Part shown: one piece after another, positions 5,151 to 59,797 of the stretch
How the letters are laid out: every line of letters starts with the position of its first letter
Numbering within the stretch: the stretch's first letter is position 1
Origin: Elusimicrobiota bacterium
GTDB lineage: Bacteria > Elusimicrobiota > UBA8919
DNA length: 64,000 nt
Direction: 5' to 3'
Assembly (NCBI GenBank): GCA_016218625.1
Contig: JACRDL010000065.1
Location: 1,521 to 65,520, forward strand
The notes under the pieces: model-generated
Seen by the model: the letters and a program-made list of their open reading frames with translations, nothing else
Database searches by the model: none
What the model was told of the DNA's origin: nothing
Made by a program: the position numbers and the translations under genes

Positions 5151-6062
5151 TTAGTTTCCAATCTGGATTTTGTATAGACCTAAAAGATTTTTCAGAAGCA
5201 TTACTGTTGTAACCGCTCCGACTCCGCCTGGAACGGGGGTGATATATCCGGCAATATTTACCGCTTCCTCATATACAACATCGCCAACCGTCTTCATTTT
5301 CGGTTTGCCGGTTTTTTCGTCAATCACCGGTTCGCCTTTTTCATCTTTCATCTGTATTCTGTTTATTCCGACATCTATCACAATCGCACCTTCTTTTATC
5401 ATGTTACCCTTTATTAAGCCTGCTTTTCCGACGGCTACAATCAGTATCTCTGCCCGTTTCGTGTGACTTGCCAAATTTTTCGTCGCTATGTGACAGACGG
5501 TAGGCGTTGCCGATTCCAAAAGCGACGATAAAAGCATGAGCGTTACAGGTTTTCCCACTATCTCGCTATGTCCGACTATTACGGCTTCTTTACCTCTGAT
5601 GTTTTCTCCCGTTGATTTTATGCACTCCATAACAGAAAGTGCGGTGCAGGGAGCAACGGGCGGTTTTACATCAGAATATAAAAGTTTGCCGAGGTTTGCA
5701 GGTGAAACGCCTTCTACATCTTTTTGAGATGAGATCGCCATTTGAACTTTTCTTGAATTGATATGGGCTGGTAATGGCATCTGTAAAATCAGCCCTGTTA
5801 CTTTTTCATCTCGGTTTATTTTTTGTATTTCAGCAATCAACGCATCTTCCGTTATACTATTGTCCAATTGGACTAAATTGTATTCAATACCAATATCTTC
5901 GCAAGATGATTTTTGATTTTTTATATAAACTTTACTTGCGGGATTTTCACCGACCTGAACCGCCACAAGCACGGGCTTCTCTTTTATTTTTTCAAGTTCT
6001 GATTTTATCTCTTGTTTTATCGCATCCGCAATTTTGTTTCCGTCAATAACTTTCGCGTTCAC
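5151..6062 (-). CDS. folD: Bifunctional methylene-THF dehydrogenase / methenyl-THF cyclohydrolase
   Basis: Typical FolD N-terminus and length (303 aa), with the GRSxxVG-like NAD(P) motif region (VIVGHSEIVGKPV). Confidence 0.9.
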   Translation of the reverse strand: MNAKVIDGNKIADAIKQEIKSELEKIKEKPVLVAVQVGENPASKVYIKNQKSSCEDIGIEYNLVQLDNSITEDALIAEIQKINRDEKVTGLILQMPLPAHINSRKVQMAISSQKDVEGVSPANLGKLLYSDVKPPVAPCTALSVMECIKSTGENIRGKEAVIVGHSEIVGKPVTLMLLSSLLESATPTVCHIATKNLASHTKRAEILIVAVGKAGLIKGNMIKEGAIVIDVGINRIQMKDEKGEPVIDEKTGKPKMKTVGDVVYEEAVNIAGYITPVPGGVGAVTTVMLLKNLLGLYKIQIGN

Positions 6063-6658
6063 GGTTTTACCTCCGTTTTTTTGATTATTTTTTCTATCTC
6101 CTCAAAAGCATCCTTCATTATGTTTTCATATTTTATTTTTGTTTCTTCCTTAAAATCTGCATCGTCAATAAATTTCAGATTTATATCTATATTGCATTTC
6201 GCCGACTCAATCCCGGACCGCAACATTGATACGCCGCAGGAAACATCGCTTAATAGATTTTTATTGCCTATTTCCGAAAGACGCATCGCAATCGGAATTG
6301 CCTCAACCGATGTCTCAAAAATTTTACGGGGAACCAACATCGCATTTTTTAATGCATCCTGAATCTTTTCTTTGGTTTTTGTTTTATATGCTTCAGAAAG
6401 AGTTGTATAGGCATTTACATCCTCATCTATTAAAATTGAGAGTTGTGAGTTAAGAGTTGCGAGTTTGGTCAAAATATTTTTTATTTCATCCTGATGTGCT
6501 TCATAACCTTTTTTTTCAACCGTAAAATTTGCCGTCATCAAAAGGCAAGAGATACCAGTAGCAGAAACCAAAGCAGCGGCGCTCCCGCCGCCGGGTGCAG
6601 GCAGTTTTGCGGACAAATCGTCCAGATACTTTTTTATTGATGAATTGATATAGTCCAT
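6059..6658 (-). CDS. fchA: Cyclodeaminase/cyclohydrolase family protein, FchA-like methenyl-THF cyclohydrolase
   Basis: PAPGGGSAAALVSATG motif of the FTCD C-terminal-like family. Sits between folD and metF, as in acetogen methyl-branch operons. Confidence 0.7.
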   Translation of the reverse strand: MDYINSSIKKYLDDLSAKLPAPGGGSAAALVSATGISCLLMTANFTVEKKGYEAHQDEIKNILTKLATLNSQLSILIDEDVNAYTTLSEAYKTKTKEKIQDALKNAMLVPRKIFETSVEAIPIAMRLSEIGNKNLLSDVSCGVSMLRSGIESAKCNIDINLKFIDDADFKEETKIKYENIMKDAFEEIEKIIKKTEVKP

Positions 6659-6667
6659 AGTGAACTT

Positions 6668-6701
6668 CCGAACAAGTGTTCGGCATCGAACATTTGTTCG
6701 G
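6668..6701. terminator. Family E double hairpin (ccgaacaagtgttcgg-catcgaacatttgttcgg) between fchA and metF
   Basis: Self-complementary. A sister copy lies at 7592-7624 on the other side of metF. Confidence 0.5.
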
Positions 6702-7591: not shown

Positions 7592-7624
7592 CCGAACAAG
7601 TGTTCGGTGCCGAACACTTGTTCG
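7592..7624. terminator. Family E double hairpin between metF and metV
   Basis: ccgaacaagtgttcggtgccgaacacttgttcg. Confidence 0.5.
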
Positions 7625-7633
7625 CCTCCAGTT

Positions 7634-8305
7634 TTATTTTTCTTGTTCTACATCGTAAAACATTGATTTCCGTAATTCTGTCTTTGGAAACATTTTTGAA
7701 TAGTCGCGAAGTTTTGTAAATTTTTGCAGATTTTCAAGTTTATTTAATTTTTTAAGACGGTTGTAAATTTTTTCCCAGCCGCAGTCAAGTTCTTTGTCTA
7801 TTTCACATTTCCCGTTTTTTGCACCGCCGCAGGAACCGTTCAGTAAAGATTTTGAACAGTTTGTTATCGGACAAATTCCGCCTGTCAAATCCAGAACGCA
7901 CTCGCCGCATTCGGCACAGCGCTCTTGCGACGGCCATGTCCCCTGAAATCCGCCGAGATAAATCGTATTGTTCGCGGGATGAACATATTTATCAATTACC
8001 GACGAAACTGCTTGAACGCCGACTCCGCATGTTAATGCAATAATTGAATCTGCAAAATCAATTTTTTCTTTATGTCTTAATATCTTTAGGGAATCCAAAA
8101 GTTTATTACACATAAAATCAACCGTTGTGCAGCCAACAACTTTTATTCCGGATGCTTCCAACTTTTGTTTCAACTCAACACATGCCTTTTCGCCGCCGGT
8201 TTCACAAACCTCAGCACAGCCGTTGCATCCGACGACAAAAACAGTTTTTTCGCCTTCAAGCATTTTTAAGATTTCGTCAATTGGTTTCTGTTGAGAAACA
8301 ATCAT
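7634..8305 (-). CDS. metV: MetV-like protein (MTHFR C-terminal-domain family, Cys-rich)
   Basis: 223 aa with multiple Cys pairs (VGCNGCAEVCE; CPITNCSKSLLNGSCGGAKNGKCE). Lies immediately upstream of metF, as MetV does in acetogens. Confidence 0.6.
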   Translation of the reverse strand: MIVSQQKPIDEILKMLEGEKTVFVVGCNGCAEVCETGGEKACVELKQKLEASGIKVVGCTTVDFMCNKLLDSLKILRHKEKIDFADSIIALTCGVGVQAVSSVIDKYVHPANNTIYLGGFQGTWPSQERCAECGECVLDLTGGICPITNCSKSLLNGSCGGAKNGKCEIDKELDCGWEKIYNRLKKLNKLENLQKFTKLRDYSKMFPKTELRKSMFYDVEQEK

Positions 8306-8781
8306 TGTTTTACCTCACATAGAATAGTTTTTATAATTTCCGGAATTTTATTTCTGATTTCCTCCGAAAGTCCAATCTTCGGCTCAATCTCTTTCGGTTC
8401 AACACCGATAAAAACAATCTCTTTCGGAATAGTGCCAACTTTTTCGGCAATTTTTAATGCATCAATTATATTCAAATCATGTAAAGATGTTTTCTGCATT
8501 TCACTATTTCGAAATTGTGAAATTGTGAAATTGTGAAATTTGTAAATATCGCCATGAACTCCGCCGTTTTTTACAGCGTCAACTATTATTAGTTTGTCAA
8601 CATCCCTTAACGAAAGAATAACATCAAGTGCTGATGTCCCACCATCAATAAATTGGACATTGGACTTCGGACATTGGACTTCGGACAACTCTTTTATTAT
8701 ATGAACCCCAATCCCTTCATCACCCATTAAAATATTTCCGAAACCAACAACCGCAATTTTACAGTGTTCTGTATTTTCCAA
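8302..8781 (-). CDS. [NiFe] hydrogenase maturation endopeptidase (HycI/HyaD family)
   Basis: GDEGIGVHI motif. 159 aa. Sits immediately downstream of the hydrogenase large subunit. Confidence 0.75.
   Translation of the reverse strand: MENTEHCKIAVVGFGNILMGDEGIGVHIIKELSEVQCPKSNVQFIDGGTSALDVILSLRDVDKLIIVDAVKNGGVHGDIYKFHNFTISQFRNSEMQKTSLHDLNIIDALKIAEKVGTIPKEIVFIGVEPKEIEPKIGLSEEIRNKIPEIIKTILCEVKQ
8521..8552. repeat. Intragenic tandem heptamer array (gaaattg x4), in-frame in the hydrogenase maturation protease
   Basis: Encodes …HNFTISQFRNS…. A second array lies at 8655-8690 (ggacattggacttcggacattggacttcggaca). Confidence 0.75.
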
Positions 8782-10252
8782 TTATATTACCTCTTAAATC
8801 AACCAGATGAACCGCACAGGCAAGGCAAGGGTCAAAGGAACGAATAATGCGAACTATTTCAAATGGATTATTTTCGTCTTTGATTTTTGTTCCGATGATT
8901 GCCTGCTCAATAGGTCCCGGCTGTTCTTTATCGTCCATCGGAGATGCGTTCCATGTTGTAGGCACAATACACTGATAATTTTCTATCTTTTTATTTTTAA
9001 CTTTTATCCAATGACCGAGTGCACCGCGAGGACCCTCCGTTAATCCCATGCCTTCCGCTTCTTCTGGCATTTGATAGTCAGTAAAAACTGGTTCATCCGG
9101 ATTTAATTGCAAAACCCAATTTGACATATTATCAGCAACAAGTTTTGATTCAATTGCTCTCGCAGCATGCCGGCCGAGAACAGAAAACAGAACTTCCGGT
9201 TTCGCATTAAATTCTGAAAGAACGCTATCAACAAGTTTTTTAGTTGTTTCATCACCGGAAATATAATTTACTAAAATTCTGGCAAGAGGTCCCACTTCGC
9301 AGACATTACCTTCGTATCTCGGTGATTTAAGCCATGAATATCCGTCTTTTTTATCTTTTTTCGGGATTGTTTCTTCGTCAAGTGGATACTTGTGCGTCTG
9401 TGAATCATCATACCATGAGTATTTTACATCCTCGGTAATTTTTGATGAATCAACAGTTTTATATGTCAGGTCTGTTGAGGTTATTCCGCTTCTTAAAAGC
9501 CGTTTTCTTGAAAGGTAATTCTTTTCGCTGCCTTCCAAATCAAAAACACCATATGCAAGATAATTACCGCATCCCTTGCCGATTTGAAAATAATCGGAAT
9601 ATTTTTTAGCAACAAAAATTACATCGGGGATATAAACATTGTCAATAAATCCACGCAATTCATTCAGCCGCCACAGAAAATTTGTAATTTTATCAACCGT
9701 CGGCTTTTCAGTTACACCGCCGGAAATTATTCCTACATTATGCGGCATTTTTCCGCCGAAAATTGCAAGCATCTCGTGTGCTTTTCTTCTAATTTCAAGC
9801 GCCTTTATGTAGTGCTGTGTCAATTCGGAATTTTCTAATTCAGAAAGACGGTAATCACCTTCGTATCTCGGAATGAAAGGTGGAACATCGGGTGATTTAA
9901 CAAAATCCAGTGCCGCAAGATGATAAAAATGCAAAATATGCGATTGAATAAAATTAGCGCCAAGAATTAGATTTCTTATTATGCGGCCGTTATCCGTAAT
10001 TTTGTCGGCAATCCCAAATGCAGAATCAAGGGCAAGTGCGGAAGCGGTTGCATGGCAAATCGGACAAACACCGCAAATTCTCTGAGTGATTTGCGAGGCA
10101 TCACGCGGGTCTCTGTTTTTTAATATTATTTCAAGCCCTCTGAAAAGTGTACCTGATGAATTTGCCTCTTTTACAATTCCACCGTTAACGATTGCTTCAA
10201 TTTTTAGATGCCCTTCAATTCGGGTTACCGGGTCTATCACAATTTTTGTCAT
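8759..10252 (-). CDS. [NiFe] hydrogenase large subunit
   Basis: N-terminal RICGVCPICH (L1 motif) and C-terminal DPCLACAVH (L2 motif) followed by a 15-aa cleavable extension. 497 aa. Cys, not Sec. Confidence 0.9.
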   Translation of the reverse strand: MTKIVIDPVTRIEGHLKIEAIVNGGIVKEANSSGTLFRGLEIILKNRDPRDASQITQRICGVCPICHATASALALDSAFGIADKITDNGRIIRNLILGANFIQSHILHFYHLAALDFVKSPDVPPFIPRYEGDYRLSELENSELTQHYIKALEIRRKAHEMLAIFGGKMPHNVGIISGGVTEKPTVDKITNFLWRLNELRGFIDNVYIPDVIFVAKKYSDYFQIGKGCGNYLAYGVFDLEGSEKNYLSRKRLLRSGITSTDLTYKTVDSSKITEDVKYSWYDDSQTHKYPLDEETIPKKDKKDGYSWLKSPRYEGNVCEVGPLARILVNYISGDETTKKLVDSVLSEFNAKPEVLFSVLGRHAARAIESKLVADNMSNWVLQLNPDEPVFTDYQMPEEAEGMGLTEGPRGALGHWIKVKNKKIENYQCIVPTTWNASPMDDKEQPGPIEQAIIGTKIKDENNPFEIVRIIRSFDPCLACAVHLVDLRGNIIGKYRTL

Positions 10253-11067
10253 TTTTCTTCGCTCCAGTGAGTTTTTTTATACATCGCTTCTAAATCGGGG
10301 AATTCCGGCTCTACACAGCCGATACAGGGAGAACCATTTTGAATGCACCAGTTGACGCCAGAATTCCAACTTCTTATCGGACAGTCAGCGTTTGTATAAG
10401 GTCCCTTGCAACCAAGTTCAAAAAGACAACCCTCATCGGAAAACTTTTTTGCGAATTTTCCTTTGTCAAAATATGGTCTTCTCTCGCAATTCTCGTGAAT
10501 AAGTTTTCCGTAAAAAAGTTTCGGTCTTGAAAGTTCGTCTAATTGAGGGATCCCAAACAATAAAATATTTGCAACCGTTCCGACAAACCAGTCGGGATGA
10601 GGCGGACAGCCAGGAATGTTTATTATTGGAATCTTTATATTTTTTGAATTCAAAAACTCTTGAACGCTTTTTGATTTTGTCGGATTGGGCTTTCCTTTTG
10701 GAATTCCTCCGAATGCGGAACATGTTCCGAGCGATATAATTGCTGATGCATTTTTTGATAGTTCTTCAACACTATCCTCCATTGATTTTTCAGCGACATC
10801 TCCGAAATCATTTTTTGGAATTGAACCTTCAACTATGAGTATGTATTCGCCGCTTTTATTTTTTTCAGCGTCAATAATTACATCTATTGCCGACTTTCCG
10901 GATGCAGCCATCACGACAGGCATAAATAAAAGATTGATGTGTTTTCCCGGGACAAGTTCATCCAGCAAAACATTTTTTATCGTCGGACTTAAAGAATTAA
11001 GCACCGAAACGGCACATCCGCTACAGGCAGCACCTTGAAACCAAATTACAGAAAATTCTTTTGGCAT
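10249..11067 (-). CDS. [NiFe] hydrogenase small subunit, cytoplasmic (no Tat signal)
   Basis: Proximal cluster GAACSGC. Medial/distal cluster motifs GCLFELGCKGPYTNADCP and WCIQNGSPCIGC. No RRxFxK twin-arginine signal. Confidence 0.85.
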   Translation of the reverse strand: MPKEFSVIWFQGAACSGCAVSVLNSLSPTIKNVLLDELVPGKHINLLFMPVVMAASGKSAIDVIIDAEKNKSGEYILIVEGSIPKNDFGDVAEKSMEDSVEELSKNASAIISLGTCSAFGGIPKGKPNPTKSKSVQEFLNSKNIKIPIINIPGCPPHPDWFVGTVANILLFGIPQLDELSRPKLFYGKLIHENCERRPYFDKGKFAKKFSDEGCLFELGCKGPYTNADCPIRSWNSGVNWCIQNGSPCIGCVEPEFPDLEAMYKKTHWSEEK

Positions 11068-11128: not shown

Positions 11129-12847
11129 CTAAAATAGTCCAACAACTTTTCCATCTTTATCTATATCAAGCCGCGTGCCAGCGGGAACAGATGGGAGTCC
11201 CGGCATTGTTCTCATCTCGCCACAAAGTGGATACAAAAACCCTGCACCAATTGACGCACGAATATCACGAATCGGCAATGTAAAATCCTTCGGTCTTCCT
11301 TTCCAACTCGGCTCGTGAGACAATGATAAATGCGTCTTCGCCATATTTATCGGCAATTTATCCCAGCCCAAGTCAGTATAGAGTTTGATTTTTTCTTCTG
11401 CGGGCGGAAGATACTGCACATCTTTTGCACCGTAAATTTTTGATGCAATTGTTTCTATTTTTTTCTTGATAGCCCAGTTCAGTTCATAAAGAAATCGGAA
11501 TTGCATTTTTTTCTCACACGCCTTTACAACTGCTTTTGCTAATTCCATCCCACCCTCGCCGCCTTTTTCCCATACCTCAGAAATAACAGCATCTTCAGCG
11601 CCAAACTCAACTGCTTTTTTTCTGACCAGTTCTATTTCTGTATCGGTATCCGTTGTGAATCTGTTGATTGCAACTACTACCGGTACACCATGCAGTTTTG
11701 CATTTTCAATCTGTTTTTCTAAATTACATAAACCCTGTTCTATAAGTTCCAGATTTTCTTTTGTCAGTTCATCCGGAAGTGATTTACCGGCGATAACATT
11801 TACTTTGCCCGAATGCATCTTTAATGCCCTGATGGAGCAGACCATCACAACACAATTCGGTGTAAGCCCGGAATACCTGCATTTGATATTCATAAACTTT
11901 TCCATCCCGCAGTCCGCACCGAATCCGCTTTCTGTAACCACATAATCAGTCAATTTTAATGCAATTTTATCCGCAATGATTGACGAATTACCATGGGCGA
12001 TATTTGCAAACGGTCCTGCGTGAACAAAACACGGAGTGCCTTCTGTCGTCTGTAACAGGTTGGGCTTGATTGCATCTTTCAAAAGCACCGCCATAGCCCC
12101 TGCTACTTTTATATCTTCCGCAGTTACGGGTCTATTATCATATGTGAACGCAACTACTATTTTCCTTAACCGTTCTCTTAAGTCGCGTAATGAAGTTGTT
12201 AAGGCAAGAATTGCCATCGCTTCAGAGGCAACTGAAATATCAAACCCTGTATAAAGTGGTACGCCATCATCACCGGGGCCAAGCCCTGTGATTATATTTC
12301 TTAAAAAGCGTTCTGAGACATCAACAACATACCGCCATAAGATTTTTTTCGGGTCAATATTTATCTGCCTGCGATAAAGTGCATTATTCAAAAATGCCAT
12401 ACATAGATTATGCGCAATTGATACCGCATGGACATCACCTGTAAGATGCAGATTAAAATCTTCCATCGGTAGAACCTGCGAATAGCCGCCACCCGCTGCA
12501 CCACCCTTTATGCCAAAAACAGGACCGAGTGATGGTTGTCTGATAGTGGTGATAACCTTTTTATCAATTTTAGCAAGACCGAGTGAAAGCCCGATTGTGG
12601 TGACCGTTTTGCCTTCGCCGAGCGGTGTTGGTGTGATTGCTGTTACATCAATATATTTTCCTTGTGGTTTATCTTTGAGTCGTTCAAGAACTTCCAGTTT
12701 TATTTTTGCTTTATAGTCGCCATAAAGTTCAAGTTCGTTTTTTCTGAGACCGATTTTTTCTGCAATCTCCGTAATTGGTTCCAGTTTGATTGATTGCGCA
12801 ATCTCAATATCCGACGGTACATTTTTAGCCATATTTTCCTCCCACAA
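11129..12847 (-). CDS. fhs: Formate--tetrahydrofolate ligase
   Basis: PTPLGEGKTVTTIGL signature. 572 aa. Confidence 0.95.
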   Translation of the reverse strand: MWEENMAKNVPSDIEIAQSIKLEPITEIAEKIGLRKNELELYGDYKAKIKLEVLERLKDKPQGKYIDVTAITPTPLGEGKTVTTIGLSLGLAKIDKKVITTIRQPSLGPVFGIKGGAAGGGYSQVLPMEDFNLHLTGDVHAVSIAHNLCMAFLNNALYRRQINIDPKKILWRYVVDVSERFLRNIITGLGPGDDGVPLYTGFDISVASEAMAILALTTSLRDLRERLRKIVVAFTYDNRPVTAEDIKVAGAMAVLLKDAIKPNLLQTTEGTPCFVHAGPFANIAHGNSSIIADKIALKLTDYVVTESGFGADCGMEKFMNIKCRYSGLTPNCVVMVCSIRALKMHSGKVNVIAGKSLPDELTKENLELIEQGLCNLEKQIENAKLHGVPVVVAINRFTTDTDTEIELVRKKAVEFGAEDAVISEVWEKGGEGGMELAKAVVKACEKKMQFRFLYELNWAIKKKIETIASKIYGAKDVQYLPPAEEKIKLYTDLGWDKLPINMAKTHLSLSHEPSWKGRPKDFTLPIRDIRASIGAGFLYPLCGEMRTMPGLPSVPAGTRLDIDKDGKVVGLF

Positions 12848-12872
12848 AAAATTATACTTAAAAAACCTATTT

Positions 12873-12968
12873 TGTCAAGATAAGCCACAGAATTTCACAG
12901 AAGTTCATAGAAGTTTTTTCTGTGTCATTTCTGTGTCTTTCTGTGGCGCCTTTCAAATTCCGATACCA
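12873..12968. repeat. Repeat family B copy. Structure: [cacagaa]n … [ttctgtg]n hairpin … cctttcaaattccgata.
   Basis: Copies are at 15925-16035 and three tandem copies at 41343-41641. Each lies immediately 3' of a stop codon (moeA, tupA, the methyltransferase). Confidence 0.85.
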
Positions 12969-27646: not shown

Positions 27647-30600
27647 TTATTCTCCGAATAGTTGCTTAAATATGTTTTTTTTCTCGCTTCCTTTTGGTTT
27701 ATCAGTCTCTGCTTTTTTCTGCTGTTCTTTTAATTGCCATTCTATCCGTTTCTTTAACATCTCGTTTTCTTTAATTACTGCTTGATACTTAATCTGCCAA
27801 TGTGATTCACCTAATAGTAACTGTTTTTTAAATGATGTTATTTCTTTTTCTAAATCGTCGGTTTTTTTAACCAAGCGTTTTTTTTGTTCTTCTATCTCGT
27901 GCTGGACAACTTTTTCTACTTCTTTGTCTTTGTATTGTAATTTCTGGTTAAATTCTTTTCTTTCATCTTCAATTCTCTTTTTCCATGTTTCAATTTCCTG
28001 CTCCAGCGTAGATTCTACTGATTTTTTTTCTTGCTGAATATTATATATCTTTTCGTTCAGGACTATTCGCTCTTCATTCATTTTTTTGTGCGTCATTTCC
28101 AGTTCGGTTCCAAGTTGCTGGAGCCGGCTTACAAGTTGCTGTTCTCTCTGTTCCATTTTTTCGATATATTTGTCTTTCTCTTCTTGCTGATTTTTAAGCA
28201 TTTGCTGAAATTTCTGTTTCTCAGCACCGACTTCTTCTTTCAACTTTACTGCTTGTAATTGCTCTGTCTGCAATTGTTCCTTAACCGCTTTGAGCATCTG
28301 CTCGCGTTTTTCTATTCCAATCTGTAAATTAGAATCTTTCTGTACTATTTCTGTTCCTAATTCGCCCTGCCGTTTTATGCCTTCTTCTATAATACACTTT
28401 AATCTGTTTATCTCAGACCTTAACTCATCTATTGTCCGCTTCTTCTCTTCAAACCCTTTTTGCCACCGCTCGTCGTTTTGCTTAAATTCCTGTACGAGTG
28501 ATGCTTTATCTCTTTCAATATCATCTATTTTGTTTTTCAAACTATTCATCTTTCGTTCATTCTCTTCTTTCTCTATTTGATATTGTGCTGCCTTTTCACG
28601 TTCAGCCAAAATTATGCCGCCTAACTTGTTTAATCCTTCTCCTGCTCTACTTATCTCATCTTGTAATTGCTTTATCTTCTGTTCAAAACCCTGAACGATA
28701 GAACCCTTTTCTCTTTCAAAGTTATCTTGTTCCTCTGATAACTCTTTTTTTAACTGCGAACTCTCTAACTCAACTGATTGTAATTTCTCGCCCAGCAGTT
28801 TTATTGCTTGCTCTTTTTTTTGCATCTCGGTTTGAAGTTGGAAATTCTGCTGTAACATCTCTGTTTCTAATAATTTTTTTTCTTCTATCTTGCTCTCTAA
28901 ATTTTTCTCTAATTCCGCCGTTTTATTTTTTAATATATTTATCTCTTCCTGTTTTTTTTGTAAATTGGTTTGCAGTTCTTTTTCATTAGTAATTCTACTC
29001 GCTTCCCATTTAATTTGTTTTTCTTCTAATTGTTTATTTAATTTTCTTATTTCGTCTTCCTTAAAATTAAACTTTGTAATCCACTGATTATTATTTTCAA
29101 GAACTTGTTTTTTTAGAATATTGATTTCCACATCTTTGTTTTCTATCGTTGTTTTAAATTCCTTTATATTTATCTCTTTTTCATCAATGATATGTTGTTC
29201 AGTGTTTATTTTTTGCTGAAACACTGCGATTTCATTTTGTAATTGATGTATTTGTGTTAATAGTTTCTCTTTTTCACCCTTGAATTCAGTTTTTAATTCG
29301 GTTGCGTTTAACTGTTCCGTTTGTAATTGGTCGCCTAATGCTTTGATTATCTGGTCTCGCTTCTGAATTTCAATCTTTATCTGTGCATCCTTCTGTAACA
29401 TCTGTGACCCTAACTCGCCTTTTTGTTTGATATTTTCCTCTATCGTTTTCTTCAATTTATTTATTTCATTCCGTAATTCCTCTATTGTTTGCTTCTTCTC
29501 TTCAAACCCTTTTCGCCACCGCTCATCGTTCTGCTTAATCTCTTGTAAAAGTGTCTCTTTTTCCTGCCCCATCTTCACTATCTGTCCAGTCAAACGGCTT
29601 ATTTCTTTCTCTTTTGTTTCATGCTCTACACACCATTGCGAGACCTTCTGCACTAACTCCAAATCTAATTCTGCCCGTTGTTCGTCCAGTTTTTTTATCT
29701 TTACTTGCCAATCTCTGTTATGTTCTTCTAATGTTTTATTAAAGGTCTCACCCGCTTCTTTTATCTGTTTTTTTAATGTTTCTATCTCCAGTTCCTTTTG
29801 TTGAATCGTCGCCTGAAATTGAACCGTAAACTCGGCCTTCTCCTTTGTAGATTTCTCTCGCTCTTTAAAAATTAGTGCGTCTAACTTGTTTATGTCCGCT
29901 TTCTCACGCTCTAACTTTTCTTGTAATTGTTTCTCTCGCTCTTCAAAACTTTGTATAAGTGAACTTTTTTCTTTCTCAAATGAAGCCCGTAATTGTTTCT
30001 CTTTTTCATCGAATTTCTGGATCTTTTCGTTGAACTCTTTTTTTAACTGCGGACTCTCTAACTCAACTAATTGTAGTTTCTCGCCCAGCAATTTTATCGC
30101 TTGCTCTTTTTTCTGCAACTCGGTTTGAAGTTGGAATTTCTGCTGCAACATTTCCGTCTCTAACACGCTTTTTTCTTTTATTATAGCACCGAGATTTTTA
30201 TGTGTTTCGTTTAATTCTTTCCGCAGTTCATCAATTTCTTGCTGTCTGTTTTGTAGACCTTCCTGCCAGCGGGTTTCTTTTTGAACAAATTTTTCAATAA
30301 GTGAGTCCTTCTCTTTTTCAAAATTATCCTGCAACTCTGTTTCACGAATTCTGAGTTTTCCTAATGATTCAACCCGTATTTCTTCCCGCTGTCTATCCAG
30401 TTTTCTAATTTCGCCTTCTTTTAATTGAAATACATCCTGCCAGTTTTTGTTGTTCTCTAAAATCTGATTTTTCAGATTCTGGATTTCATTATTTTTATGT
30501 TTTATATTCTCCTCTAATTCTTCTATCTGTTGTCTGAATGGTATCTGTATGTTTTTAATTTCTGTTTCCGACTCCGCCAGTTTTTGGTTTATTTGAATCT

Positions 30601-30826
30601 GTTGCTCTTTAATTTTTTGAATCTCATCTGCCCAATGTGTTAGTTTTTCTTCTAATTCTTTAACTATATCTGACAGTATCCTTTTAATATTGGTGGCAAC
30701 TGCAAAGGCACGAATATCAGAATCTGTTTTCCCGATTATTCTTTCTTCAGTGTAACCAAAACCAGTTTTCATTTTGGTTTTTATTTCTGATAATAAAGCG
30801 TCTATTTCGTCCTTATATTTTTCCAT
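27647..30826 (-). CDS. Giant coiled-coil protein (1059 aa), rich in E/K/Q and internally duplicated, function unknown
   Basis: Heptad-rich sequence throughout, with no TM segments or recognisable enzymatic motifs. Two long modules are duplicated (IKQNDERWRKGFEEKKQTIEELRNEINKLK… versus FKQNDERWQKGFEEKKRTIDELRSEINRLK…; LETEMLQQKFQLQTELQKKEQAIKLLGEKLQLVELESPQLKKEF versus LETEMLQQNFQLQTEMQKKEQAIKLLGEKLQSVELESSQLKKEL). A GGGGGA SD-like motif lies upstream of the ATG. Confidence 0.8.
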   Translation of the reverse strand: MEKYKDEIDALLSEIKTKMKTGFGYTEERIIGKTDSDIRAFAVATNIKRILSDIVKELEEKLTHWADEIQKIKEQQIQINQKLAESETEIKNIQIPFRQQIEELEENIKHKNNEIQNLKNQILENNKNWQDVFQLKEGEIRKLDRQREEIRVESLGKLRIRETELQDNFEKEKDSLIEKFVQKETRWQEGLQNRQQEIDELRKELNETHKNLGAIIKEKSVLETEMLQQKFQLQTELQKKEQAIKLLGEKLQLVELESPQLKKEFNEKIQKFDEKEKQLRASFEKEKSSLIQSFEEREKQLQEKLEREKADINKLDALIFKEREKSTKEKAEFTVQFQATIQQKELEIETLKKQIKEAGETFNKTLEEHNRDWQVKIKKLDEQRAELDLELVQKVSQWCVEHETKEKEISRLTGQIVKMGQEKETLLQEIKQNDERWRKGFEEKKQTIEELRNEINKLKKTIEENIKQKGELGSQMLQKDAQIKIEIQKRDQIIKALGDQLQTEQLNATELKTEFKGEKEKLLTQIHQLQNEIAVFQQKINTEQHIIDEKEINIKEFKTTIENKDVEINILKKQVLENNNQWITKFNFKEDEIRKLNKQLEEKQIKWEASRITNEKELQTNLQKKQEEINILKNKTAELEKNLESKIEEKKLLETEMLQQNFQLQTEMQKKEQAIKLLGEKLQSVELESSQLKKELSEEQDNFEREKGSIVQGFEQKIKQLQDEISRAGEGLNKLGGIILAEREKAAQYQIEKEENERKMNSLKNKIDDIERDKASLVQEFKQNDERWQKGFEEKKRTIDELRSEINRLKCIIEEGIKRQGELGTEIVQKDSNLQIGIEKREQMLKAVKEQLQTEQLQAVKLKEEVGAEKQKFQQMLKNQQEEKDKYIEKMEQREQQLVSRLQQLGTELEMTHKKMNEERIVLNEKIYNIQQEKKSVESTLEQEIETWKKRIEDERKEFNQKLQYKDKEVEKVVQHEIEEQKKRLVKKTDDLEKEITSFKKQLLLGESHWQIKYQAVIKENEMLKKRIEWQLKEQQKKAETDKPKGSEKKNIFKQLFGE

Positions 30827-32748: not shown

Positions 32749-33618
32749 TTATTCTGAAAAATACTTTGATAACTTTTCCTTTAGTAAGTCATATAATCTT
32801 TTATATGGAGTTGTATTTTGAGAATTGAAAAACTCTAATAATAATTTTAGAGTTTTACCTTCTCTGAAAATCACTTTAATAATACCCTCTTCCCACAATT
32901 TTTCATTTTCCAAAATTTTACGCCAATATCTCAATTCTAATTCTTTTAATTCTTCAAAACTTTTAAGGGGTTCTTTGTCGCAATTAACTTCTGGAATTTC
33001 TGGCAAATCTTTTTTCCATTGTTTCAACCATAAAAGCATGTCGTCCCACATTTTTGGATTTTTTAGGTATTCAAAAAATTCTTCTCCATAAAATAATTTA
33101 ACTTCAATATCATAAAAGGAACTTAATCTTGTTATCTCTTGTTCATAAAAATTTTTATTTTTTGAAAGATCTGGGTCAATAAAATACATAATTCCTGTCA
33201 ATTGTTTTCCATGTTTTTTATAAAGAATTTCTAATTTTGTTTCAAAATTTGAAATTTGACCCCGTTTTTTAGTTGAGTCGTGGTCATCTCTTACTTTCTG
33301 TTCAACAAAATAAATTTTATTTAACTTGCTAAAATATTGGTCTATTGATAAATTTTCGCCTTTTTCATTAGTAATATTCTTATCAAGTATTGTATAATCC
33401 CAATCTCTTAAAATTTTTTTAATTAATTCTTCAAGTGCATCGCCAAATCTAATTTCGTGTGACTGTAACAAATTCTGAAGAACTTTTGTTCCCGGTTTTG
33501 TAGGTCTGAATAAACCAATAAATCGTTCTGGCCAATCTGCAATCTTTTTTAACAACTCATTCTTTTCTTTACTAAACAAATGCTCATTCAAAATTTTAGC
33601 AAAATTTTCATAATTCAT
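32749..33618 (-). CDS. Hypothetical protein, candidate restriction endonuclease partnering the adjacent methyltransferase
   Basis: 289 aa with no recognisable family. A possible PD-(D/E)xK-like D…(E/V)EQK arrangement is present (SIDQYF…YFVEQKVRDD). It lies on the same strand 18 bp downstream of a Type II-like MTase, forming a two-gene islet between acsB and acsC. Confidence 0.35.
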   Translation of the reverse strand: MNYENFAKILNEHLFSKEKNELLKKIADWPERFIGLFRPTKPGTKVLQNLLQSHEIRFGDALEELIKKILRDWDYTILDKNITNEKGENLSIDQYFSKLNKIYFVEQKVRDDHDSTKKRGQISNFETKLEILYKKHGKQLTGIMYFIDPDLSKNKNFYEQEITRLSSFYDIEVKLFYGEEFFEYLKNPKMWDDMLLWLKQWKKDLPEIPEVNCDKEPLKSFEELKELELRYWRKILENEKLWEEGIIKVIFREGKTLKLLLEFFNSQNTTPYKRLYDLLKEKLSKYFSE

Positions 33619-33635
33619 AATAAATCACCCCTCAA

Positions 33636-34535
33636 CTATGTTTTTACTAATATTTTATTTTCACTCTTTCTACTAACAAACAAGTCATCATCTAATTCTT
33701 TTAATCGTTTATTTATAACTTCAATATATTTATGTTCTTTTTCAATCATTATGTAATTTCTTCCAAATTTTTTGGCTATATATCCTGTCGTGCCTGTACC
33801 CGCAAATGGGTCTAACACAATATCGCCTTCTTTACTCGTTGCTAAAATAATTCTGGTAAGTAACTTTTCTGGCTTTTGCGTGGAATGAACTTTTTGACCG
33901 TTTTCATCTTTTATTCTTTCATCACCGGTACAAAGTGAAAAATACCAATCACTTCTCATCTGTTTCCCGTTATTCATTTCTTTCATCAATTTATAATTAA
34001 ACGTATATTTTTTGGAATATTTGTCCTTTGTCGCCCAAATAAGTGTTTCATGTGCATTAGTAAAACGAACCCCACGAAAATTTGGCATCGGATTTGTTTT
34101 TATCCATACAACATCATTTAATATCCAAAATCCTAAATCTTGCATCACTTTTCCAACTCTAAAAATATTATGATATGCACCAATAACCCAGATTGTACCT
34201 GTTTTTTTGAGAATCCGTTGACATTCATATAACCAATTTTTGATAAATTCATCATATTCCTCAAAACTGCCAAATTTATCCCAATTATCATTAACTCCAT
34301 TAACAATTGAATTATTTGGTCTTATTAGAATATTTTGTAACTGTAAATTGTACGGTGGGTCGGCAAAAATCAAATCAATAGAATTATCAGGAATTGCTTT
34401 CATTACTTCAGTACAATTACCTTCAATAATTTTATTTGTGAAATCACTAACATTCTTTGTAAATGTTTTTGCATCGTAAATCACAATATTACTTTTCATT
34501 AACAACGGCTTTTTTCCTTTTTTCTTTTTATACAT
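33636..34535 (-). CDS. DNA methyltransferase, beta-class (N6-adenine or N4-cytosine)
   Basis: The DPPYN motif IV precedes the FAGTGTTG motif I, which is the circularly permuted beta-class order. 299 aa. Confidence 0.85.
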
Positions 34536-52985: not shown

Positions 52986-54344
52986 TTATAATTTCTTTAT
53001 TCTTTCCCAGAACTTTGCCGAAAGTTCGCGGGATTTCTGACAGATAAACTCTTCGTTGATATTTTCAAGTTTTTTGTCTTTCATAAGAGTTTTACCATTG
53101 CAAATTGTAGTGTCCACCGTCGCATCCACTATTCCGAAAATCAAGTGTCCCAGAAAATTATCTTTTGACAAAGGAGTCGGCGGAATATAGTCAAGAACTA
53201 TCAAATCGGCGGGAGAACCCACTTCAATTTTTCCCACAGGCGCGCCTGTTTTTTTTCCGAAAATTTTTTCGGCGATTTTTGAATTATTCTGCAAAAGCAT
53301 TTCCGGGGCTTCGCAGAAAGCAACCCGCGGGTCTTTTTTATTATGACGGTGAATCAAATATGCGCATCTCATCTGCGAAAGCATATCCGACGACATCCCG
53401 TCCGTGCCGAGTCCGACGGTAATGCCTTTTTTCATCATAGTAAGGACGTCCGCACAGCCAACCGCATTGTTCATATTGCTTTCGGGATTGTGCACCGCAT
53501 TAGTTTTTGTTTCATTCATTATTTCCATTTCTTTTTCGTCTATGTGAATGCAGTGAATGAGCATTGTCTTTTCACCGAGGGCTCCGAATTTTTTCAATCG
53601 CTCAACAATCCGCATTTTATATTTTTCGACGGAGTCATTCTCATCTGCCAAATCCTCGGCGCAATGGATGTGCATTCCGACATTGTATTTTTTTGCCAAA
53701 GCGGCGTGTGATTCCAATGTGTCATTATTGACGGTAAACGGAGCGTGAAGTCCGACCATACCAGTAACGAGGGACGGGGGACGAGAGACGAGGGACGAGA
53801 GAAAGCGTTCATTCTCTTTAAGTCCTTCGCCGCCCTTACCATAACGGTCTGAAGTCCCGAAACATAAACAGGCACGAATGCCGATTTTTTCAACCGCTTT
53901 TTGAATCTCATCAAGCGAACCAACCTGAAATTCCTGCGATTCGTGATGATCAATAATTGTTGTTGTGCCGTTCTTCACGCATTCAATCAAAGGGATTAAC
54001 GAGGAATAATAAATGTCCTCCGCCGTCAGAACCCTGTCAAGTTTCCACCAAAGTTTCTCAAGAACTTCCACAAAGTTTTTCGCAGGGGTCCCCGGAATAT
54101 ACATCCCGCGGGCGAAAGTGGAATACAAATGGTGGTGCGTGTTGATAAATCCCGGAAGAATTATTTTTTTCTTGGCGTCAATAATTTTTAATTGAATTTT
54201 ATCTTCTGAAACTCTGAAAACTTTTGCTCTTACTTCATCCGTATTTCCCACATCTTTTATTACTCCGTCCTCAAACAACACCCCACCGTTTTCAATAACT
54301 TCCGACGGTGTAATCACCGTACCGTTACACAATAAAGTCAACAT
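52986..54344 (-). CDS. Amidohydrolase (SsnA / chlorohydrolase-aminohydrolase family)
   Basis: PGFINTHHHLY metal-binding motif. 452 aa. Contains an in-frame heptamer-like insertion (SLVSRPPSLVTG). Confidence 0.7.
   Translation of the reverse strand: MLTLLCNGTVITPSEVIENGGVLFEDGVIKDVGNTDEVRAKVFRVSEDKIQLKIIDAKKKIILPGFINTHHHLYSTFARGMYIPGTPAKNFVEVLEKLWWKLDRVLTAEDIYYSSLIPLIECVKNGTTTIIDHHESQEFQVGSLDEIQKAVEKIGIRACLCFGTSDRYGKGGEGLKENERFLSSLVSRPPSLVTGMVGLHAPFTVNNDTLESHAALAKKYNVGMHIHCAEDLADENDSVEKYKMRIVERLKKFGALGEKTMLIHCIHIDEKEMEIMNETKTNAVHNPESNMNNAVGCADVLTMMKKGITVGLGTDGMSSDMLSQMRCAYLIHRHNKKDPRVAFCEAPEMLLQNNSKIAEKIFGKKTGAPVGKIEVGSPADLIVLDYIPPTPLSKDNFLGHLIFGIVDATVDTTICNGKTLMKDKKLENINEEFICQKSRELSAKFWERIKKL
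53767..53805. repeat. Intragenic GA-rich tandem heptamer-like array (gagggac/gagagac), in-frame in the amidohydrolase
   Basis: Encodes SLVSRPPSLVTG. Confidence 0.6.
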
Positions 54345-54406
54345 TCAAACCTCCATAGTGAGAAATTGAACCTGTCCCCTTTTTTTCTCTTTTTTTCCCT
54401 TTTTTT

Positions 54407-54925
54407 TCAGATTTTATTTCGTAAGAAACCTTTTATTTGCTTGGGCGGGGGTTGGGGCAAAACTAACATCTGGTTAAGCAATTTGAAAATGTATTTTATC
54501 CGTGCATCGTGTTCTTCAATTTTTTTCTGTAAGTCCTTGTGTGTTGCTAAAATCTTACGCAGTTTAGTAAAGACACGCATGATTTGGATATTTATTTCTA
54601 TCGCCCTGTCGCTATTTAATACTGATGAAAGCATAAGAACGCCGTGCTCTGTAAATGCATATGGTAAATGCCCGCCGAAATACTTTTTATGTGGTATCAC
54701 ATTTTGTGATACCACCTGTTCGGCTTCGGATTCGTTGAGTTGAAACATAAAATCATTAGGAAATCTTTTGATATTACGGTTAACAGATTGAACAAGTGTC
54801 CTCGTCTCAACCCCGTATAATTCTGCTAAATGAAAACTTAACATCACTTTTTGACCTCTGATGAGCAAAATTTTACTTTCAATTCTTTCCAGCGGAATAC
54901 TGACAATTAAATTTTTCTTTTTCAT
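54407..54925 (-). CDS. ORF6N-domain protein (phage/mobile-element-associated DNA-binding family)
   Basis: LAELYGVETRTLVQSVNRNIKRFPNDFMFQL…PYAFTEHGVLMLSSVL matches the ORF6N/KilA-N-like domain pattern as I remember it. Confidence 0.55.
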   Translation of the reverse strand: MKKKNLIVSIPLERIESKILLIRGQKVMLSFHLAELYGVETRTLVQSVNRNIKRFPNDFMFQLNESEAEQVVSQNVIPHKKYFGGHLPYAFTEHGVLMLSSVLNSDRAIEINIQIMRVFTKLRKILATHKDLQKKIEEHDARIKYIFKLLNQMLVLPQPPPKQIKGFLRNKI

Positions 54926-55047
54926 AATAATTTTATTTTACCTCTTTGAAATAAAAAATCAATGAAGAAATCGGAACTGTCTATTTTTTCTTGTTTTTTC
55001 TGAGTCAACCATTTTCAACTCCATATCCTGACACGCTTTGAGAGAAA

Positions 55048-55407
55048 TCAGCGATTGCTAATATTCCTCATCTCAAGCATTGGCATAAACAAAGCTATCA
55101 CTGTTACAAGAAGCAGCAATCCTATTATCACTGCCGAAATCCTCACAAAATTTATGATTCTGCTATTTTTCCCTATAACTATATAAAAATAAATTACACT
55201 TATTGGCAATAAAATCACAAACCACATTTTAGATAAATACAATATGCCTTTGGTGATTTGCGGTAAATCAACTCCTAAACTATCAAATATTTCTTTAAAC
55301 ACAGGGACGACAACAATGAAAATAAAAGAGCAAACTATTATTCCCGAGAGTAAACACAATTTAGGATCTGCTAATTTAGACATATTATTTTTAATAAATT
55401 TTATCAT
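55048..55407 (-). CDS. GspF/PilC-like fragment (single T2SS-F domain), possibly a gene remnant
   Basis: 119 aa. PVFKEIFDSLGVDLPQITKGIL resembles the conserved T2SSF repeat. It is only about one third the length of PilC/GspF. Confidence 0.35.
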   Translation of the reverse strand: MIKFIKNNMSKLADPKLCLLSGIIVCSFIFIVVVPVFKEIFDSLGVDLPQITKGILYLSKMWFVILLPISVIYFYIVIGKNSRIINFVRISAVIIGLLLLVTVIALFMPMLEMRNISNR

Positions 55408-55587
55408 CTGATTTCCTTCATGCGAGAAAATTGGGACGCTTTATTTTTTCTATTTGTCTATGTTTTCAATGGTTTTTAAAAGGCTTCTGCCTACGACTTG
55501 AGAAATCAGGCAAAATTCCAAAAACAACTAATAATTGCAAAAACCTAAATTTTATTGCTGCGGGCTTTTTTCGTTTTTCTTTAACCG

Positions 55588-55760
55588 CAGAGCGAAGCAA
55601 GAAATTTGTAAGGAACCTTGAGGAGCGACTTCGCTTTCAAGAGCGACGAACAGAGCGACCGAAGGAAGTCCCTTTAGGGACGAAATCCGACAGGGCGGTC
55701 GGTGAGCGACCGAAGGAAGTCCCTTTAGGGGCGTTTCCGACAAATTTGCTTGCGAGCGAC
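55588..55760. repeat. Repeat family C copy with an internal 27-bp direct duplication (gagcgaccgaaggaagtccctttaggg x2)
   Basis: Shares termini with the other C copies. Lies immediately 3' of the DPD-like gene stop. Confidence 0.8.
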
Positions 55761-55762
55761 TT

Positions 55763-58297: not shown

Positions 58298-58309
58298 CTT
58301 CTTCTCCTC

Positions 58310-59665: not shown

Positions 59666-59683
59666 TTGTTCAATTCTTTCTCC

Positions 59684-59797
59684 CGGAGCGAGGAAAAAAT
59701 TTCTGAAGAGCCTCAATTTGCGACTTATTCTTTCCAGGAGCAAATTGCAGAGCGAGTGGCAGACGAGCGTCTCAAAGAAATTTGTTTCCGAGCGACT
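59684..59797. repeat. Repeat family C copy
   Basis: Lies immediately 3' of the panD stop and overlaps the N-terminal extension of the hydantoinase ORF as given in the ORF track. Confidence 0.8.

Follow-up and report, generated by a model that had tools for sequence, protein, structure and literature searches.

A [NiFe] hydrogenase is encoded among the methyl-branch genes of the Wood-Ljungdahl pathway (WLP) within a 64,000-nucleotide stretch of an Elusimicrobia metagenome-assembled genome (MAG; GCA_016218625.1, contig JACRDL010000065.1, positions 1,521 to 65,520 of the forward strand), the whole of which is called the window here. The genes run on the minus strand in the order fhs, hydS, hydL, a maturation protease gene, metV, metF, fchA and folD, followed by recA. 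This order had been proposed in a first-pass annotation, and it is borne out by Pfam and NCBIfam scans of open reading frames (ORFs) of at least 110 amino acids (aa), from which all gene identities in the window are taken. By gene coordinates, the interval singled out in that annotation, 7634-11067, comprises hydS, hydL, the protease gene and metV. Since a hydrogenase lacking a twin-arginine translocation (Tat) signal fronts metVF both here and in every informative relative, H2 probably drives the reduction of methylene-tetrahydrofolate (methylene-THF) directly.

Upstream of fhs are moeA, a molybdate/tungstate ATP-binding cassette (ABC) transporter, mobA, a formate dehydrogenase (FDH) of the FdhA-NuoF-NuoE type, acsE, ack and acsD, and further upstream are RACo, acsC, acsB, a CooF-like protein with a flavoprotein, acsA and cooC. 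With WLP genes flanking it on both sides, the hydrogenase thus sits within a WLP supercluster of approximately 40 kb. Several of the reading frames overlap, by 4 nt at hydS/hydL, 23 nt at hydL/protease and 4 nt at protease/metV, and these overlaps from hydS through metV are consistent with translational coupling.

Features of the hydrogenase-metVF locus, with positions in the window
Feature	Positions	Strand	Details
Promoter-like site upstream of fhs	12851..12878	-	Perfect sigma-70 consensus TTGACA, 16 nt, TATAAT; 12/12 matches
fhs, formate-tetrahydrofolate ligase	11129..12832	-	PF01268 848 bits; NF010030 787 bits vs cutoff 652
hydS, [NiFe] hydrogenase small subunit, 272 aa	10249..11067	-	Oxidored_q6 + NiFe_hyd_SSU_C
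hydL, [NiFe] hydrogenase large subunit, 497 aa	8759..10252	-	NiFeSe_Hases, PF00374 518 bits; NF033181 704 bits vs cutoff 600
Hydrogenase maturation endopeptidase, HybD/HycI family	8302..8781	-	PF01750 99 bits; TIGR00072 131.8 bits vs cutoff 47
metV, Fe-S/Zn subunit of MetVF-type methylene-THF reductase (MTHFR), 223 aa	7634..8305	-	PF12225 112 bits
Twin 16-bp palindromes, metV-metF intergenic region	7592..7625	.	CCGAACAAGTGTTCGG x2, 2-nt spacer
metF, flavin-containing TIM-barrel catalytic MTHFR subunit, 291 aa	6705..7580	-	PF02219 130 bits
Second twin-palindrome copy, metF-fchA intergenic region	6668..6701	.	CCGAACAAGTGTTCGG x2, 2-nt spacer
fchA, methenyl-THF cyclohydrolase	6059..6658	-	PF04961 171 bits
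folD, methylene-THF dehydrogenase/cyclohydrolase	5151..6062	-	PF02882 + PF00763

The large- and small-subunit motifs reported in the first-pass annotation are all present. HydL contains both nickel-binding motifs, RICGVCPICH (C60 and C63) and DPCLACAVH (C476, C479 and H482), with cysteine rather than selenocysteine, and a C-terminal extension of 15 residues past DPCLACAVH, of the kind cut off by the protease encoded in the operon. HydS contains ligands for three Fe-S clusters: C15, C18, C116 and C154 for the proximal cluster, C229, C241, C248 and C251 for the medial cluster, which has four cysteines as in [NiFeSe] enzymes, and H191, C194, C214 and C220 for the distal cluster. All of these are invariant apart from C241, which is present in the window protein.

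The location of the enzyme can be predicted from the ends of HydS. Its N-terminus, MPKEFSVIWFQGAACSGC, coincides with the start of mature periplasmic small subunits, and residue 3 aligns to residue 6 of the mature, signal-cleaved small subunit of Desulfomicrobium baculatum (1cc1_S). Any longer N-terminus is precluded by a pair of in-frame stop codons located 14-15 codons upstream of the hydS ATG. The protein ends approximately 10 residues past its last cluster ligand and, because it also aligns to a mature N-terminus, HydS lacks both a Tat signal and a C-terminal anchor. The upstream stops, the mature-type start and the missing anchor agree with the earlier suggestion of a Tat-less hydrogenase, which is predicted to be cytoplasmic.

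The affinity of HydL was assessed by phmmer scores against all Protein Data Bank (PDB) chains. Its best matches are periplasmic [NiFeSe] large subunits (478 bits, E = 3e-142). The [NiFe] enzymes of Desulfovibrio (D. fructosovorans and D. vulgaris) score 384-422 bits, Escherichia coli Hyd-2 and Hyd-1 score 329 and 310 bits, Huc (group 2a) scores 228 bits and group 1h scores 150 bits, and groups 3a, 3c and 3d (Mvh, Frh and NAD-reducing enzymes) reach at most 122 bits. HydS, in turn, best matches periplasmic 1a structures (238 bits). Matches of MvhA to HydL span the N-terminal region only and the VhuG model, whose cutoff is 450 bits, gives 37 bits; with no MvhD or Hdr domains among the scanned ORFs of the window, identity as a group 3c Mvh enzyme was rejected. 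A membrane-bound respiratory role was also rejected, since there is neither a Tat signal nor an anchor, and no respiratory partner (cytochrome b or c3, HybA/NrfD) is encoded among the scanned ORFs. The catalytic dimer is thus, by sequence, a group 1 [NiFe] hydrogenase that lacks two features by which its physiological class is defined, Tat export and a respiratory partner. Meheust et al. likewise place the Elusimicrobia enzymes in 'group 1' (Fig. S9 phylogeny and Table S3). On these similarities, the hydrogenase appears to be a catalytic, group 1a-like enzyme, predicted to be cytoplasmic, and neither a sensor nor an Mvh.

The neighboring metV and metF genes appear from their sequences to encode a bona fide MetVF-type MTHFR that matches none of the four published types (PMC8760232). 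MetV has five cysteines in an N-terminal Rossmann-like domain (C27, C30, C34, C66 and C93) and eight in a C-terminal Cys-rich PF12225 domain (C130, C133, C136, C145, C150, C159, C167 and C175), and in an alignment of homologues these 13 positions are invariant or nearly so. In an AlphaFold2 model built from a 40-sequence alignment (mean predicted local distance difference test score 68.7), the N-terminal Rossmann-like alpha/beta fold is confident and the Cys-rich C-terminal domain is poorly modelled. A Foldseek search of this model against the PDB returned generic alpha/beta matches alone (E > 0.005), and no sequence homologue of MetV was found in the PDB. MetF is far from MetF structures of the NAD(P)H type (1v93, E = 2.5e-12). 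The genes that define other types are not found here. No RnfC-like gene (rnfC2, the marker of type III) adjoins metVF in the window, and the type IV markers hdrCBA and mvhD are not beside metVF among the scanned ORFs. The first-pass annotation had noted that HdrABC is absent from the window, and this holds for the ORFs scanned with Pfam (those of at least 110 aa except one of 119 aa at 55048-55407), none of which has a CCG (HdrB/D), FlpD (MvhD) or HdrA-type architecture.

The hydrogenase belongs to a Tat-less clade. Among the 120 closest homologues of HydS (54-100% identity, 260-319 aa), none has an RR motif. The first cluster cysteine is at residue 11-26 in 118 of them, the exceptions being P0214, which has a longer N-terminus, and P0181, in which the CxGC motif has diverged. 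In an exhaustive search covering 1.84 billion cluster representatives, the Tat-less clade amounts to a few clusters at 50% identity, and the next-best matches (<=52% identity) mostly have a classical RRxFLK Tat signal approximately 40 residues upstream. In a neighbour-joining tree of small subunits, all Tat-less sequences form one clade, with no Tat-bearing representatives inside it.

Conservation of the gene neighborhood was surveyed by using the clade alignment to scan a single genome from each GTDB species and mapping the window proteins by tblastn onto the best 80 loci (54-91% identity), of which those with enough downstream DNA (n = 59) were considered informative. In all 59 informative species-level loci, metV is located within 1.5 kb of hydSL, and metF is located within 4 kb in 58. 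The genomes carry the labels Elusimicrobiota, Dehalococcoidia, Anaerolineae, other Chloroflexota, Phycisphaerae, Pirellulales, Sedimentisphaerales, Aerophobetes, Poribacteria, Omnitrophota, Fraserbacteria, Latescibacteria and others, some of them classes or orders, for a total of at least eight bacterial phyla. The arrangement also occurs on metagenome contigs, including those of Elusimicrobia relatives (81% and 69% identity), a Dehalococcoidia MAG, an NCBI MAG and an ENA contig. Of the loci with full 8-kb flanks, 12 contain no further WLP gene; what surrounds the module there are housekeeping genes or genes for nickel supply, unrelated to it. The module travels separately from the remaining pathway genes.

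The same linkage is recovered when the search is reversed. The nearest homologues of MetV from other phyla (57-62% identity; P0421, P0448 and P0505) are all encoded directly 3' of hydS-hydL-protease. One locus from this reverse test (L091) has no metF nearby, and the tightest link is therefore that between the hydrogenase and MetV. As a control, two Tat-bearing relatives (L089 and L090; 50-52% identity) were examined and are found in hupL-protease-hupS-Fer4_11 (HybA-like) clusters that lack metV; the L090 cluster runs on into NrfD, and the L089 contig ends after a short cut gene. Pairwise distances over 49 loci with complete genes are correlated between HydS and MetV (r = 0.87) and between HydL and MetV (r = 0.87) to nearly the same degree as between HydS and HydL (r = 0.89), and the correlation of HydS and HydL with MetF is 0.53-0.55. 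MetV thus co-diverges with the hydrogenase about as tightly as the obligate partners HydS and HydL do with each other. The net charge of the distal-cluster loop (H191-G222) does not set the clade apart (mean +0.6, versus +0.2 in 121 other small subunits; SD 2.0), and there is accordingly no docking-surface signal. The comparative evidence strongly supports the view that hydSL and metV(F) constitute a functional unit.

Some members of the clade depart from the arrangement seen in the window. In one Omnitrophota locus (L074), the C-terminal motif of HydL is DPCLACSMQ, with the usual His of the protease site replaced by Gln. In eight others (L066, L068, L072, L075, L078, L079, L081 and L083), HydL ends exactly at the C-terminal His without an extension, and the cluster has no protease gene. 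With both extension and protease gene missing, maturation in this eight-locus subclade may be independent of a protease, as it is in sensory and Ech-type enzymes. In a Chloroflexia genome (L010, 1675-6092), the module is preceded by genes encoding a LarC-type nickel-insertion protein and a CbiM-type nickel/cobalt transporter, and on its other flank are a 680-aa CCG-domain Fe-S oxidoreductase and an electron-transferring flavoprotein subunit. Finally, five loci (L007, L033, L057, L070 and L071) share an Anaerolineales variant in which the order is a 1490-aa HdrA-like flavoprotein, metV', hydS, hydL, a cyclic nucleotide (cNMP)-binding histidine kinase, metF', two response regulators, metV and metF. 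The 1490-aa protein is of the Moorella type and contains Fer4_20/GltD-like, multiple Pyr_redox_2 and Fer4 domains. This variant resembles the Moorella-type cluster of marine Anaerolineae (Sewell et al. 2017), with a hydrogenase inserted.

Given these observations, a soluble H2:methylene-THF oxidoreductase of the cytoplasm, in effect a fifth kind of acetogen-style MTHFR, is the probable product of hydS, hydL, the protease gene, metV and metF. The first-pass annotation had raised such a module as a possibility, and it is supported by the linkage in 59 of 59 loci, the independence of the module from the pathway, the co-divergence and the different partner of the Tat-bearing sisters. Purified MetVF enzymes have flavin in MetF and Fe-S clusters in MetV and do not use NAD(P)H, their electrons being supplied one by one by Fe-S donors (Thermoanaerobacter kivui, PMC8578170; PMC8760232), and different lineages attach different input modules to MetV, such as RnfC2 for NADH (type III) or HdrCBA-MvhD (type IV) (PMC8760232). 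In the enzyme proposed here, H2 would be split at the Ni-Fe site of HydL, and electrons would travel singly along the [4Fe-4S] chain of HydS, from the proximal to the medial to the distal cluster. MetV would accept them from the distal cluster, and its own Fe-S clusters would deliver them to the MetF flavin, where methylene-THF would be reduced to methyl-THF. We infer that HydSL and MetV(F) form a physical complex with direct electron transfer, working in the reductive direction and without energy coupling. The module may have originated from a periplasmic group 1a uptake hydrogenase of the HupLS-HybA type that lost its Tat signal and exchanged its HybA/NrfD-type partner for MetV.

The energetics of this reaction were calculated from E0' values of -414 mV for H2 and -200 mV for methylene-THF/methyl-THF (PMC8760232). 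By our calculation, the reduction of methylene-THF by H2 has a deltaG0' of approximately -41 kJ/mol, or approximately -18 kJ/mol at 10 Pa H2, and it stays negative down to approximately 1e-7 bar. Unlike H2-driven reduction of NAD+, direct coupling would therefore keep the step favorable at subsurface H2 levels. Table S3 of Meheust et al. lists a 'NiFe Group 1' enzyme for four Elusimicrobia. Rnf and the WLP are present in each of these genomes and an [FeFe] hydrogenase in none; a group 3c (Mvh) enzyme is found in just one, and a group 4 Mbh-Mrp-oxidoreductase hydrogenase in three.

Several points weigh against this interpretation. Neither the 93 related loci nor the Pfam assignments in the homologue tables show a natural fusion of HydS or HydL to MetV. 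Co-inheritance of an operon can by itself yield both the linkage and the distance correlation. At standard conditions, the uncoupled reaction loses approximately 41 kJ/mol, a seeming waste in organisms that live close to the limit set by thermodynamics. It is possible that Hdr genes are present elsewhere in the genome, beyond the window. In addition, because the HdrA-like protein and a second metV/metF pair adjoin the hydrogenase in the Anaerolineales, the chemistry may be more complex in some lineages; judged by its gene content, that variant likely does carry out more complex chemistry, and it is possibly a bifurcating enzyme.

It may instead be that HydSL is a general cytoplasmic uptake hydrogenase reducing a soluble carrier, for example ferredoxin, flavodoxin or rubredoxin, from which MetVF and other enzymes would draw their electrons. 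The linkage would then be due to co-regulation of pathway genes rather than to a physical complex. Purified MetVF does take electrons from reduced ferredoxin in vitro (PMC8578170, PMC8760232). The window genes are inside a large pathway operon, for which co-regulation is expected, and the L091 neighborhood lacks metF. Nevertheless, the linkage is specific to metV in all 59 informative loci, with overlapping frames, and it holds in the 12 loci that have no other pathway gene nearby. Co-divergence between MetV and the hydrogenase as tight as that between the hydrogenase subunits also argues against a general carrier, as does the established thermodynamics of H2-to-ferredoxin reduction, which is uphill at environmental H2 levels. 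On balance, this explanation is unlikely.

A second alternative is flavin-based bifurcation, in which HydSL-MetVF, possibly with a further subunit, would couple H2 oxidation to downhill methylene-THF reduction and simultaneous uphill ferredoxin reduction. Such a system would be analogous to MvhAGD-HdrABC, with energy conserved indirectly through Rnf. It is thermodynamically feasible by our calculation, since the mean acceptor potential of approximately -325 mV is above the -414 mV of H2, and it would benefit the cell greatly. Rnf is present in these genomes, in which no other obvious H2-to-ferredoxin route was found. The Anaerolineales hydrogenase and one metV copy adjoin the Moorella-type HdrA-like flavoprotein, and a bifurcating mechanism is a long-standing proposal for enzymes of the MetVF type (PMC8760232). 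However, neither the window nor most other loci encode an HdrA-like or other second flavoprotein, and the sole flavin of the four-gene unit is that of MetF, which is needed for hydride delivery to the substrate. Bifurcation has also never been demonstrated for any purified MetVF (PMC8760232). We therefore regard it as decidedly unlikely.

Bifurcation is one of two ways in which the module could be a device relevant to energy conservation rather than a mere short-circuit, a broader proposition that we consider doubtful. If the enzyme bifurcates, it could be the sole H2-to-ferredoxin route of these Rnf-containing organisms. The other option, which is speculation, is an H2 cycle inside the cell in which the module does the consuming: ferredoxin would be oxidized to H2 by a group 4 hydrogenase of the Mbh type that pumps ions, and HydSL-MetVF would recapture that H2. 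The idea arises from the group 4 hydrogenases of three of the four genomes in Table S3, and, if it is correct, the large drop in potential from ferredoxin to methylene-THF would be conserved. Either option would bear on the 'energetic dilemma' of MetVF in uncultured subsurface bacteria of several phyla.

The remaining alternatives fare worse. The module could run in the oxidative direction, coupling the oxidation of methyl-THF from methylotrophy, O-demethylation or syntrophic acetate oxidation to H2 evolution. [NiFe] hydrogenases are reversible in principle, and many of the host lineages (Dehalococcoidia and Planctomycetota) are suspected of using a reverse pathway or of methyl-group metabolism. 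With potentials of -200 versus -414 mV, however, forming H2 would need less than approximately 1e-7 bar, and the module has no membrane subunit to provide an energy input. The H2-evolving direction is thus implausible, and since the window genome has ack, FDH and Rnf-type acetogen features as well, we consider this reading very improbable. Least credible of all is an H2 sensor controlling pathway-gene expression in the manner of the regulatory hydrogenase HupUV, an outcome that the first-pass annotation had named as counting against its module: the enzyme is cytoplasmic and Tat-less as sensors are, the eight-locus subclade lacks both extension and protease gene, and the Anaerolineales cluster includes a histidine kinase and response regulators, but the window HydL keeps its extension and has its own dedicated protease, its affinity is to catalytic group 1a and not to group 2, the module lacks an adjoining kinase gene both in the window and in most other loci, and its constant neighbor is a redox protein, MetV.

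The remaining features of the locus concern its expression and its flanks. From its match to the consensus, the promoter-like site upstream of fhs may be the start of a transcription unit comprising fhs, hydSL, the protease gene, metVF, fchA and folD; no convincing minus-strand terminator was found between fhs and folD. The fhs ATG at 12832 is preceded by a ribosome-binding site (GGGAGG). As this site and the sigma-70 consensus lie just upstream of it, the ATG is the likely start, and the TTG at 12847 listed by the program is probably wrong. The twin palindromes fill exactly both intergenic regions flanking metF, where approximately 0.02 matches would be expected by chance. They are absent from all 93 related loci in which they were searched for, and they thus appear to be specific to this genome and to lie outside the conserved module. 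They may represent an operator, a hairpin in RNA or an element resembling repetitive extragenic palindromic (REP) sequences.

Elsewhere in the window, a 1059-aa ORF without a Pfam match (27647-30826, minus strand) lies between acsC with a response regulator and RACo. The encoded protein, in which E, K and Q are extremely abundant, is internally repetitive and coiled-coil-like, and this composition accounts for the strong AT skew of the region. An N6/N4 DNA methyltransferase gene and a 289-aa gene (32749-34535, minus strand) split the acs cluster between acsB and acsC, and a similar methyltransferase pair is found downstream of the module in three other loci (L003-L005). An 844-aa protein with N-terminal Fer4_20 and Pyr_redox_2 domains (GltD/PreT-like, and not an Hdr) is encoded with two flanking amidohydrolases at 52986-59743 (minus strand). 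Together with panD and panC elsewhere in the window, these genes may represent a reductive pyrimidine degradation/beta-alanine set.

No description of a hydrogenase-metVF cluster was found in the searchable literature, although most subscription journals lie outside that search and an earlier description is possible. The 'NiFe Group 1' assignment of the four Elusimicrobia by Meheust et al. is given in a supplementary table alone, without comment, and two MAG studies that contain the arrangement labelled the hydrogenase as a generic group 1 uptake type. In one case, the hydrogenase of the Dehalococcoidia MAG CHL_03 was interpreted as a respiratory group 1 uptake enzyme that generates proton motive force (PMC9326234). 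The corresponding locus in our survey (L082, MAG B_CHL_03) has a Tat-less hydS-hydL-protease-metV arrangement with metF downstream, and the respiratory interpretation is therefore probably wrong. More generally, annotation pipelines label such enzymes 'NiFe group 1, H2 uptake', whereas what follows from the sequences is the prediction of a soluble enzyme that stays in the cytoplasm and is dedicated to the WLP.

The electron donor of MTHFR has been debated since 1977, and that of the MetVF type is still called an unsolved dilemma (PMC8760232). The identity of this donor largely settles whether acetogenesis gives net adenosine triphosphate (ATP). If our interpretation is correct, a hydrogenase on MetV would be a fifth solution to the MTHFR problem, and it would identify H2 as the donor without ambiguity. 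The arrangement is found in at least 80 species-level genomes with the labels Chloroflexota, Planctomycetota, Elusimicrobiota, Aerophobetes, Omnitrophota and other groups. These host groups are often reported from sediments and aquifers.

Among known hydrogenases, HydSL is most similar in sequence to the periplasmic group 1a [NiFe] and [NiFeSe] enzymes, such as D. vulgaris Hys, that of D. baculatum (1CC1) and the Dehalococcoides-type HupLS-HupX. It has in common with them the nickel-binding motifs, three Fe-S clusters and C-terminal processing by a HybD-type protease, along with the four-Cys medial site of the [NiFeSe] enzymes. Unlike these enzymes, it lacks a Tat signal and a lipid or transmembrane anchor, has Cys in place of Sec and has no cytochrome c3, HybA or NrfD partner. 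The gene order also differs, being S-L-protease-metV here and L-protease-S-hybA-nrfD in the Tat-bearing sister lineage.

Among MTHFRs, the module resembles types II-IV (Clostridium ljungdahlii and T. kivui; the RnfC2-MetVF of Acetobacterium woodii; the HdrCBA-MvhD-MetVF of Moorella and Sporomusa) in its MetV-MetF core, its adjacent genes and its position in the methyl branch. The design common to all of them is an exchangeable electron-input module on MetV. Here the role of input module falls to a [NiFe] hydrogenase, so that H2 itself would be the donor in place of NADH or ferredoxin. The four-type scheme includes no such enzyme (PMC8760232). The closest functional precedent is the chain of Sporomusa ovata, in which methylene-THF reduction also depends on H2 and proceeds via a [NiFe] uptake hydrogenase and MetVF (PMC9430772). 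That hydrogenase is periplasmic, Tat-exported and anchored by cytochrome b, and its electrons reach Hdr-MvhD-MetVF via quinone and cytochromes, with formation of a proton gradient (PMC9430772). The components of the module described here are all predicted to be soluble and cytoplasmic, and so, unlike the S. ovata chain, the module itself would not provide chemiosmotic coupling.

Two further systems are comparable in design. Like the methanogen MvhAGD-HdrABC complex (group 3c), the module would be a cytoplasmic [NiFe] hydrogenase that feeds a flavoprotein reductase through an Fe-S chain; unlike Mvh-Hdr, which bifurcates, it has no MvhD or Hdr in the scanned window ORFs, and its similarity to the group 3c hydrogenase is low. 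In the hydrogen-dependent carbon dioxide reductase (HDCR) of A. woodii and T. kivui, a hydrogenase is wired via small Fe-S subunits to a WLP reductase, bypassing soluble carriers, and the module resembles HDCR in this respect. The proteins themselves are unrelated, as HDCR combines an [FeFe] hydrogenase with a formate dehydrogenase and acts at another step of the pathway. A carrier-independent module of four or five genes leading from H2 to methyl-THF could nonetheless serve the engineering of C1 fixation, as HDCR has.

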